Shown: positions 20,159-22,194 of the stretch, piece after piece
Numbering within the stretch: the stretch's first letter is position 1
Layout of the letters: each line of letters opens with the position of its first letter
Origin: a virus
Lineage: Duplodnaviria > Heunggongvirae > Uroviricota > Caudoviricetes
Strand: one strand, 5' to 3'
IMG/VR virus record: IMGVR_UViG_2874945390_000005
DNA: 23,639 nucleotides
Notes under the pieces: generated by a model
Database searches by the model: none
What the model saw: only the letters and a program-made list of their open reading frames with translations
Told to the model about the DNA's origin: nothing
Position numbers and translations under genes: made by a program

Positions 20159-20379
20159 CAAATATGGTTTCCACTCTCAAAGACAAAGACAATCGCAGCA
20201 AAAACGTAAGCCAGAATCATGCAGATGATTATGGTTACAGCCAGAACGATTACCCTCCTTTCTGATTACTGAAAATAAGGCTCCCATTAATGCCAGCGCC
20301 TCTGTATGGTGCGGATGACCCGCGCAACTGCTCCGGTAGCTCCAAGGCGGAGGTGCTGGAAAATATCAAAATGAAGTGG

Positions 20380-21219
20380 TCAACAAAAACTGGCCACCGA
20401 GTTAGAGTTTTTCCAGTATCGATTTTCCGATTCGTTTGGGGGTAACCCACCGTTATATTCGTGCGGTCTTAGTGCGCTGTAATATCCAACGATATAGTCC
20501 GTTATGGCGTGAGCTGCCTCGCTGAAGCTTACGTAACCCACCACCGGCATCCATTCGTTCTTCAGACTCCTGAAGAAGCGTTCCATTGGGCTGTTATCCC
20601 AGCAGTTTCCGCGCCGGCTCATACTCTGTCTGATCTGGTATCGCCACAATAACTGCCGGAACTGCCTGCTCGTATAATGACTGCCCTGATCGCTGTGGAA
20701 CATCACCCCGCCGGGCTTACCACGGGTTTCCCATGCCATTTCCAGCGCTTTCATGGTGAGCCTGCTGTCCGGCGAGAACGACATGGCCCAGCCCACTGGT
20801 TTTCTTGCGAACAGGTCGAGAACAACGGCGAGGTACGCCCAGCGCTTACCCGTCCAGATATAGGTCACATCACCGCACCACACCTGATTTGGCTCGGTCA
20901 CGGCGAACTGCCTTTCAAGGTAGTTAGGGATAGCAACATGTTCATGACCACCACGTTTATACCGGTGAGTCGGCTGCTGACAGCTGACCAGCCCCAGCTC
21001 TTTCATGAGCCTGCCAGCAAGCCAGCGTCCCATCTGGTAGCCTCTCCGGGTTGCCATTGTGGCGATGCTTCTTGCTCCGGCCGAACCATGGCTGATGCCA
21101 TGTAGCTCAAGTACCTGACTGCGTAATACAGCCCGTCTGCCGTCTGGTTTTTCAGGACGGTTTTTCCAGTATCTGTAGCTGCTGCGATGAACCCCGAACA
21201 CTTGGCAGAGTGTGACCAC
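20380..21219 (-). CDS. IS911 OrfB (DDE transposase)
   Basis: 279-aa ORF ...[68 protein letters not shown]... Confidence 0.9.
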
Positions 21220-21245
21220 AGGATAATGCGCTCTGAGTTTCCCGA

Positions 21246-21548
21246 TTATCGAGAACTGTTCAGGGAGTCTGACATCAAGAGCGCGGTAGCCTTTTTTAAT
21301 ATTTCATTCTCCATTTCAATGCGTTGTAGCTTTTTCCTCAGCTTACGTATTTCGATTTGTTCTGGTGTTATCGGAGAGGCTTTTGGTGTTTTGCCCTGAC
21401 GCTCATCACGCAGTTGTTTGACCCATCTTGTCATTGTGGAAAGGCCAACATCCATAGCTTTGGCGGCATCTGCCACCGTGTATTTCTGGTCAACAACCAG
21501 TTGAGCGGATTCGCGTTTAAACTCTGCGCTAAAATTTCTTTTTTTCAT
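21246..21548 (-). CDS. IS911 OrfA
   Basis: [53 protein letters not shown]...; the ORF-track start at 21584 lies upstream of the probable ATG at 21548. Confidence 0.9.
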
Positions 21549-22194
21549 TGGAGCACCTGTGTTGTTCTGAGGTGAGCATATCACCTCTGTTCAGGTGGCC
21601 AAATTCAGTGTGCCACTTTACATTATCAAGTTGCTTGTTACGTGATGCCAAGATGTTCTGTTTGGCAATTTCACAGAGTTCTTCATCGCTCTTATCGGTC
21701 ATGTAAATAAACTGACCAGCACCTCTTGAAGCTTTAACCATCTTCACAATCCGGTATCCATCAGGAAGATTATTAATCACGTCTGGGATATTCTCAGGAA
21801 AAGTACCAAAACCATCATTATCTGTATATGTGAAGTAAACATACGGCTTTTGTGACAATTCATCCTGAATCTCAAATTCTGATGGCTCAATAGCTGATTG
21901 CATCAAGGTAACTTTGCTGTAAGCGTCATCAAGTTTAAGACGCTGTGCTTTTAGCAGTGGGTAATATTCACGCTCAAGATTAAATAATGCTTCACTCTTG
22001 CAAATATCAGGCATCTCTTGAGGTTCAGGAGTCACAAAGATGATTTCCTTTGGTGACATCTTTAGCTCTTGCTCAAGCTTAATTCTTTCATTGTGTTCTT
22101 TACGCTGAATAGTGATAGCTGGATGTTCAGTCTGTGGTGACCAGTCACCGAAGCTATCAATCTTTCTGCCGTTAATAAATAAATCGTTTGTCAT
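21529..22194 (-). CDS. Unknown protein in a low-GC block, 3' end replaced by the IS911 terminus; native part about 21622..22194
   Basis: ATG at 22194-22192 with GAGGAAA upstream ([44 protein letters not shown]...). The last 30 or so codons are read from the IS911 inverted repeat. Confidence 0.45.

Follow-up and report, generated by a model that had tools for sequence, protein, structure and literature searches.

The locus

The stretch of DNA analysed here (hereafter the window, 23,639 bp) is a segment of the chromosome of Shigella boydii, CP026836.1, at approximately positions 379,846-403,484 (accession identified by an exact match of the 221-aa fusion ORF described below, species as given in PMC12817139). 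Near its right-hand end a complete copy of IS911 separates a fragment of the phage gene abc2, on the left, from a fragment of a gene encoding a 236-aa protein, on the right. The initial annotation had placed IS911 between two truncated genes, and this is borne out: the ends of the element are fixed at 20372 and 21620, and homologues show both genes to be cut. The relevant features are given below, and comparison loci are cited throughout by L number.

20290-20371, plus strand: abc2 5' fragment (phage anti-RecBCD protein 2; Pfam PF11043), nt 1-82 of 297
20372-21620, minus strand: IS911, complete, 1249 bp, aligned with five independent E. coli copies
20372: IRR tip of IS911, reading TGAAGTGGTCAAC...
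21620: IRL tip of IS911
21548-21246, minus strand: orfA of IS911, intact
~21297-21291, minus strand: A6G -1 frameshift heptamer (A AAA AAG) of IS911
21548-20380, minus strand: OrfAB of IS911, 389 aa, reconstructed across the heptamer
21619: point mutation at IRL position 2, T for C on the plus strand, that is, TA for TG in the orientation of the IS
21621-22194, minus strand: 5' fragment of the 236-aa gene (codons 1-191 plus 1 nt), delimited by intact homologues
8529-8654, minus strand: abc2 3' fragment, nt 172-297 including the stop codon, 100% identical to abc2 of E. coli WP4-S18
8655-9918, plus strand: IS600a, 1264 bp, without a target duplication (CTT versus TTG)
17376-18639, plus strand: IS600b, 1264 bp, a simple insertion in recT with the 3-bp duplication TAC

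Identity of the IS911 element

IS911 was first described in Shigella dysenteriae. The five independent E. coli copies are each 1249 bp long and run from TGAAGTGGCAC to GACCACTTCA; the window copy differs from the E. coli copy L006 by one mismatch in 1250 aligned positions and is 100% identical to L010 over 1247 bp, and at least 80% of the IS911 query was matched in 1,800 E. coli genomes. In the source record the element is annotated as an IS3-like/IS911 transposase of 389 aa with PF01527 and PF00665 (HTH_Tnp_1 and rve). Full-length identity, orfA and orfB, the -1 frameshift and the DDE transposase are all as in IS911. As for the TG...CA terminal repeats, the IRR is canonical, and the IRL begins with TA here and with TG at the identical junction in CP027027.1. 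The 3-bp (rarely 4-bp) target duplication of IS911 is lacking, with AAA on one side and CAT on the other, which argues against a primary insertion and not against the identity of the element.

The left flank: a divided abc2 gene in a lambdoid prophage

A plus-strand ORF starting at 20290 had been described as entering IS911 after 27 codons, and this is exact to within a nucleotide: 27 native codons and 1 nt are followed by 24 IS-derived codons, with the stop at 20443-20445. The ORF matches the PF11043 profile at positions 1-29 of 97 (E=6.5e-9, 36.3 bits against a 25-bit cutoff), and hence as a fragment of that family rather than a full-length member, and the intact 98-aa homologue matches PHROG 656 'abc2 anti-RecBCD'. 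The abc2 region shares 99.4% identity with many E. coli prophages, and the 82 nt of the 5' fragment are identical to abc2 of E. coli WP4-S18. A look-up of the 51-aa fusion of abc2 and IS911 found no such protein on record. Upstream of abc2 lie the genes of a lambdoid recombination module, namely RecT, a YqaJ exonuclease and a DUF669/SSB-like protein; the DNA to the left of IS911 is early-region (recombination) sequence of a lambdoid prophage.

The DUF669/SSB-like gene (19679-20265) is itself frameshifted by a 1-nt deletion, giving ORFs of 159 aa and 33 aa where the O157-type homologue L004 has 195 aa; the 159-aa form also occurs in the sister strain L079.

The initial annotation proposed searching for the missing halves of both truncated genes, and that of abc2 was found at 8654-8529, inverted with respect to the 5' fragment, 11.7 kb away from it and abutting the IRL end of IS600a. 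A single E. coli abc2 matches both fragments at 100% identity, and 89 bp between them are missing: in E. coli the order DUF669, abc2, DUF2737, Ea22 is contiguous and exactly 89 bp longer than the joined fragments. Leftwards from 8654 the minus strand carries DUF2737, Ea22/DUF551, ORF6N antirepressor-like genes and the integrase, an order which indicates that the distal genes of the early operon lie in the opposite orientation to the proximal ones. IS600a, on its other side, meets the 3' end of a prophage helicase gene, and forms another rearrangement junction within this prophage. The IS600a-helicase junction is common to L020 and L079, and in L020 (AAMJ02000007.1) it coexists with the natural orientation of the operon's proximal and distal parts. 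IS600b, whose site is empty in the sister strain L079, served as an internal control for an unrearranged insertion of an IS3-family element.

Several other signs of decay were observed in the prophage. The helicase gene (9872-11378) is split into a 371-aa ORF and one of roughly 118-136 aa, where L079 and L020 have a single 501-aa gene, so that the frameshift is probably specific to the window strain. Other mobile or selfish elements of the prophage are present at 2733-3518, 5178-6083, 6364-7573 and 13744-14330: a transposase of the IS630 family (DDE_3) flanked by two ORF6N genes, an IS2-like orfB, another frameshifted IS3-family element, and a hicAB toxin-antitoxin pair beside the cI repressor.

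The right flank: a low-GC island

On the other side of IS911 the truncated 236-aa gene begins with ATG at 22194 and is extended by about 29 IS-derived codons to a stop at 21529-21531, in agreement with the 30 or so terminal codons that had been attributed to the IS. Intact homologues have 236 aa, so 43-45 codons are missing from the window gene, and the 221-aa fusion ORF has an exact match in one assembly only. The search for the lost part of this gene ended differently from that for abc2: neither its tail nor the tape-measure region was found in the window. In E. coli islands, genes for a 69-aa protein, a tape-measure protein, a Dit-like protein and a large serine recombinase come after the intact gene, and the part of the island downstream of the 236-aa gene is entirely absent at the IS911 junction. 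A search with the tape-measure protein for the missing part returned only a more distant intact island of 77.5% identity, inside yecE in another draft S. boydii genome, which was not informative about the junction. Pfam and PHROG searches with the intact 236-aa protein gave no hit, and the name 'transposase' that NCBI gives to the family therefore looks unsupported. The right flank is a distinct integrative island of low GC content and phage-like character.

Homologues of the 236-aa protein number more than 3,000 and come from E. coli, Shigella, Citrobacter and others. The island spans approximately 11 kb and comprises an HNH gene, several small ORFs, the 236-aa and 69-aa genes, the tape-measure gene (PF20155), the Dit-like gene (PF21821) and the large serine recombinase; it is represented by L012:867-9225 (236-aa homologue at L012:5870-6580), L081:3352-14674, L001 and L002, and by window positions 21621-23639 continuing in L011. 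No capsid genes were seen in the ~11-kb island, and it may represent a satellite or a tail-module element. It occupies different sites in different genomes: yecE (DUF72) harbours it in E. coli A10 and in the S. boydii draft, in TUM9757 its neighbour is tonB, and in CP026836.1 it adjoins ymdF-rutG. Its tape-measure gene has been hit independently by IS911 or ISEc52 in L002 and L003.

Absence of a target duplication

Exact mapping of the ends places AAA (20369-20371) and CAT (21621-21623) beside IS911, and shifting the boundaries by up to 2 bp yields no 3- or 4-bp repeat. The absence of a target duplication noted in the initial annotation is thereby established; as to the triplets themselves, that they differ and that the left one is AAA both hold, the right one being CAT and not att/tta. 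The uncertainty of about 2 bp then attached to the right boundary is accounted for by the mutated IRL position 2 (21619). A matching 3-bp duplication together with intact flanking genes, the outcome that would have told against this description, was looked for and not found. The GC content is 47.8% in 18597-20371, 51.4% in IS911 and 37.9% in 21621-23639, and the element does join, as had been suggested, unrelated gene fragments and two compositional domains, the prophage and the 37.9% GC island.

Duplications of 3 bp accompany the comparison insertions in L008 (GAG) and L009 (CTG), and IS911-type insertions in the same island are likewise duplicated (GTC in L002, TGC in L003). Among 24 distinct other full-length IS911 copies, counted over the loci fetched and many of them from S. 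flexneri and IS-rich E. coli, 17 have no duplication and 7 have one of 3 or 4 bp. IS911 copies in IS-rich genomes usually lack a duplication, and this majority agrees with the pervasive IS-driven rearrangement described in Shigella (PMC8072062). By comparison, insertion of an IS3-family element from a minicircle produces an element flanked by direct repeats (PMC3299598). A search of 5,426 complete E. coli genomes found neither IS911 junction of the window, and the particular junction of abc2, IS911 and the 236-aa island gene appears to be undescribed.

The IRL tip

The IRL tip reads TAAAGTGG where the canonical sequence is TGAAGTGG. Across the whole of IS911, position 21619 is the only difference from the closest E. 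coli copies and from the sister strain, and its base matches neither IS911 nor six E. coli homologues of the target (..ACAACTTAACATTATC). At the same junction in CP027027.1 (L079) the sequence is ...GATAATG followed directly by TGAAGTGGCAC, and the G of the tip is the sole difference in 684 bp; a canonical tip at an identical junction in a sister strain indicates that the T at 21619 is a later point substitution. The right junction was accordingly, when formed, a canonical IS911 end beside CAT. The change is synonymous within the fusion ORF (GTG to GTA), and probably disables the IRL end for transposition, as the CA-3' tips of IS3-family ends are near-invariant (PMC3299598). An exact scan of GTDB species representatives yielded no TA tip, and of 50 IS911-type IRL ends in a control scan of such genomes 48 have CA, one AA, one CG and none TA; a natural TA-tip variant of IS911 was rejected on these scans. 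The tips of the ISEc52 and IS911 copies in related islands are canonical.

Sister assemblies and chromosomal setting

CP027027.1 (L019, L079) and CP026824.1 (L018) contain this decayed prophage too, and in them ipaH follows the integrase. CP027027.1 contains both IS911 junctions, over 684 bp on the side of the 236-aa gene and approximately 2.65 kb on the side of abc2, and apart from the IRL tip they match the window base for base. Both sister assemblies also carry an IS911 with a canonical tip in Ea22, flanked in CP027027.1 by GAG on either side. Two inverted copies of IS600 in CP027027.1 divide recT at 17121-17124, an arrangement that bears the signature of an inversion by recombination between IS600 copies. 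Undoing this inversion restores the order of the window, which makes the window arrangement the older one; the comparison thus places the formation of the IS911 junctions before the split of the window strain and the CP027027.1 strain. The additional IS600 inversion in CP027027.1 also shows that the locus undergoes rearrangements of this kind repeatedly.

Outside the window, the integrase side leads to ibs-mdtABCD and the island side to Dam, a small resolvase, ymdF and rutG-rutB. The ibs-mdtABCD and ymdF-rut loci are presumably about 1 Mb apart on the E. coli K-12 map, and on that distance at least one of the duplication-less junctions in the window would be a chromosome-scale breakpoint.

The sister assemblies differ from the window in further respects. 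In CP027027.1 both IS911 and IS600 are themselves interrupted by IS30-family elements (L019:2143-2495, L079:685-1905), and an IS30 fragment abuts the IRR end of IS911. The window integrase (1-912) is truncated, with 231 aa called against 357 aa in relatives. Homology with the relatives ends at window position 3, where ipaH (LRR_TTSS and NEL) follows in them (L017:11441-12640); the window strain runs instead from the integrase into ibs-mdtABCD, which is another breakpoint, without an IS.

Origin of the junction

We consider it likely that the window IS911 is a hybrid copy, generated by homologous recombination between two IS911 copies and now lying at the junction of an IS-mediated rearrangement. 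On this account one IS911 would have inserted into abc2 after nt 82 and a second into the 236-aa gene of the island after codon 191, beside CAT, each with its own 3-bp duplication. RecA-type recombination between the copies would then have left a single IS911, whose IRR kept the abc2 flank and whose IRL kept the island flank. Such an exchange predicts what is found, namely canonical ends, no matching duplication, two 3'-truncated genes facing IS911 and a step in GC content. IS600 would have played a comparable part: insertions in abc2 (before nt 172) and at the 3' end of the helicase gene, followed by recombination between them, would have inverted the block from the helicase to abc2, accounting for the inverted 3' fragment and for the lost 89 bp. 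The G-to-A change at IRL position 2 was acquired by the window strain after the junction had formed. Each of these events may have been an inversion or a deletion, and the window is compatible with more than one order of events. The two prior insertions and their RecA-type joining are steps that we infer: the parental single insertions (abc2 with AAA, the 236-aa gene with CAT) were not found in 5,426 complete E. coli genomes, and no internal polymorphism marks a crossover, as the window IS911 is identical to widespread copies. If the two copies did recombine, the reciprocal junction would consist of the tail of the 236-aa gene (...AACTTAACAT), IS911, and AAA followed by abc2 from nt 83 onward.

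Canonical ends without a duplication would also be expected from a transposase-mediated intramolecular event, in which a single IS911 end, or a reinserted circle with subsequent resolution, attacks the other site and the intervening DNA is deleted or inverted. The island is repeatedly hit by IS911-type elements (L002, L003), OrfAB is intact, and both ends were canonical at formation; nevertheless we hold this route to be unlikely, because IS911 moves by copy-out/paste-in through a circle and so yields simple insertions with direct repeats (PMC3299598), because the 3' half of abc2 is inverted beside IS600 and not deleted, such that at least two events would be needed here too, and because the flanks map to distant K-12 loci. 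A separate and very unlikely proposal is that the ancestral insertion in the 236-aa gene was not random: the end-targeted pathway of OrfAB alone would have acted on a natural chromosomal pseudo-end, and the TA tip would later have immobilised that end and locked the rearrangement in place. Intact homologues have, on the lost target side, TTAAGTTG 3 bp beyond the insertion point, which matches the start of the inverted repeat, TGAAGTGG, at 6 of 8 positions and with the spacing of an IRR-3bp-IRL junction. Unlike IS911 end-targeted insertion, however, the likeness is confined to the tip and does not extend to the transposase-binding part of the repeat, and six other duplication-bearing IS911 sites score 0-4 of 8, with no signal of a preference for tip-like targets; by this sequence comparison the resemblance of TTAAGTTG is most likely due to chance.

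The odd tip has invited a different reading of the right junction, in which ACTT microhomology linked the 236-aa gene to an IS end lacking its last 2 bp. The end of the IS (..CCACTT(CA)) and the target (..CAACTT(AA)CATT) do share ACTT, 5 of 6 positions on the lost target side agree with the IS tip, and the base at 21619, the sole change in IS911, fits neither the IS consensus nor the six E. coli targets. The full canonical tip at the CP027027.1 junction is nonetheless incompatible with such an origin, barring gene conversion of the sister's G, and tip-like targets are absent at six other duplication-bearing IS911 sites, leaving this reading very improbable. The same assembly makes an assembly artefact equally improbable: IS copies are a classic cause of mis-joins, here across a 1.25-kb repeat in a finished genome, and the exact 221-aa fusion ORF occurs in one assembly only, but CP027027.1 has both junctions within a different larger arrangement, with extra IS30-family insertions and an inversion, and is therefore an independent observation. 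Decay by mutation of the 3-bp duplication of a simple insertion, for which the one point mutation at the IRL tip and nothing else can be cited, has a negligible chance of being correct; the flanks are unrelated genes of different elements, each cut exactly at the IS911 end, and an empty site in the form of a fusion of abc2 and the 236-aa gene was found in no genome searched (5,426 E. coli).

Implications and comparison with known systems

The junction is most likely an ordinary scar of recombination between IS copies and calls for no new mechanism. It has little importance beyond annotation, where it means that the 51-aa and 221-aa ORFs at the ends of IS911 are fusion artefacts of truncated genes, and that abc2 of this prophage consists of two mutually inverted pieces from which 89 bp have been lost. 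The breakpoint is common to at least two Shigella-type assemblies and is a possible lineage marker, and the locus offers a worked example of how a missing IS911 duplication is not unusual in IS-rich genomes.

Compared with IS911 as it is known (IS3 family, IS3 group), the window copy has the same 1249 bp, 36-bp terminal repeats, orfA/orfB organisation and A6G frameshift, and is 99.9-100% identical to E. coli copies annotated as IS911 in RefSeq; unlike canonical IS911, it has no 3-bp duplication and reads TA rather than TG at the IRL tip (position 2). With regard to the IS-mediated rearrangement and prophage decay known in Shigella (PMC8072062), the locus shows the same features, a duplication-less IS between unrelated truncated genes and a second such IS nearby, and differs in nothing of kind, only in the particular junction formed.
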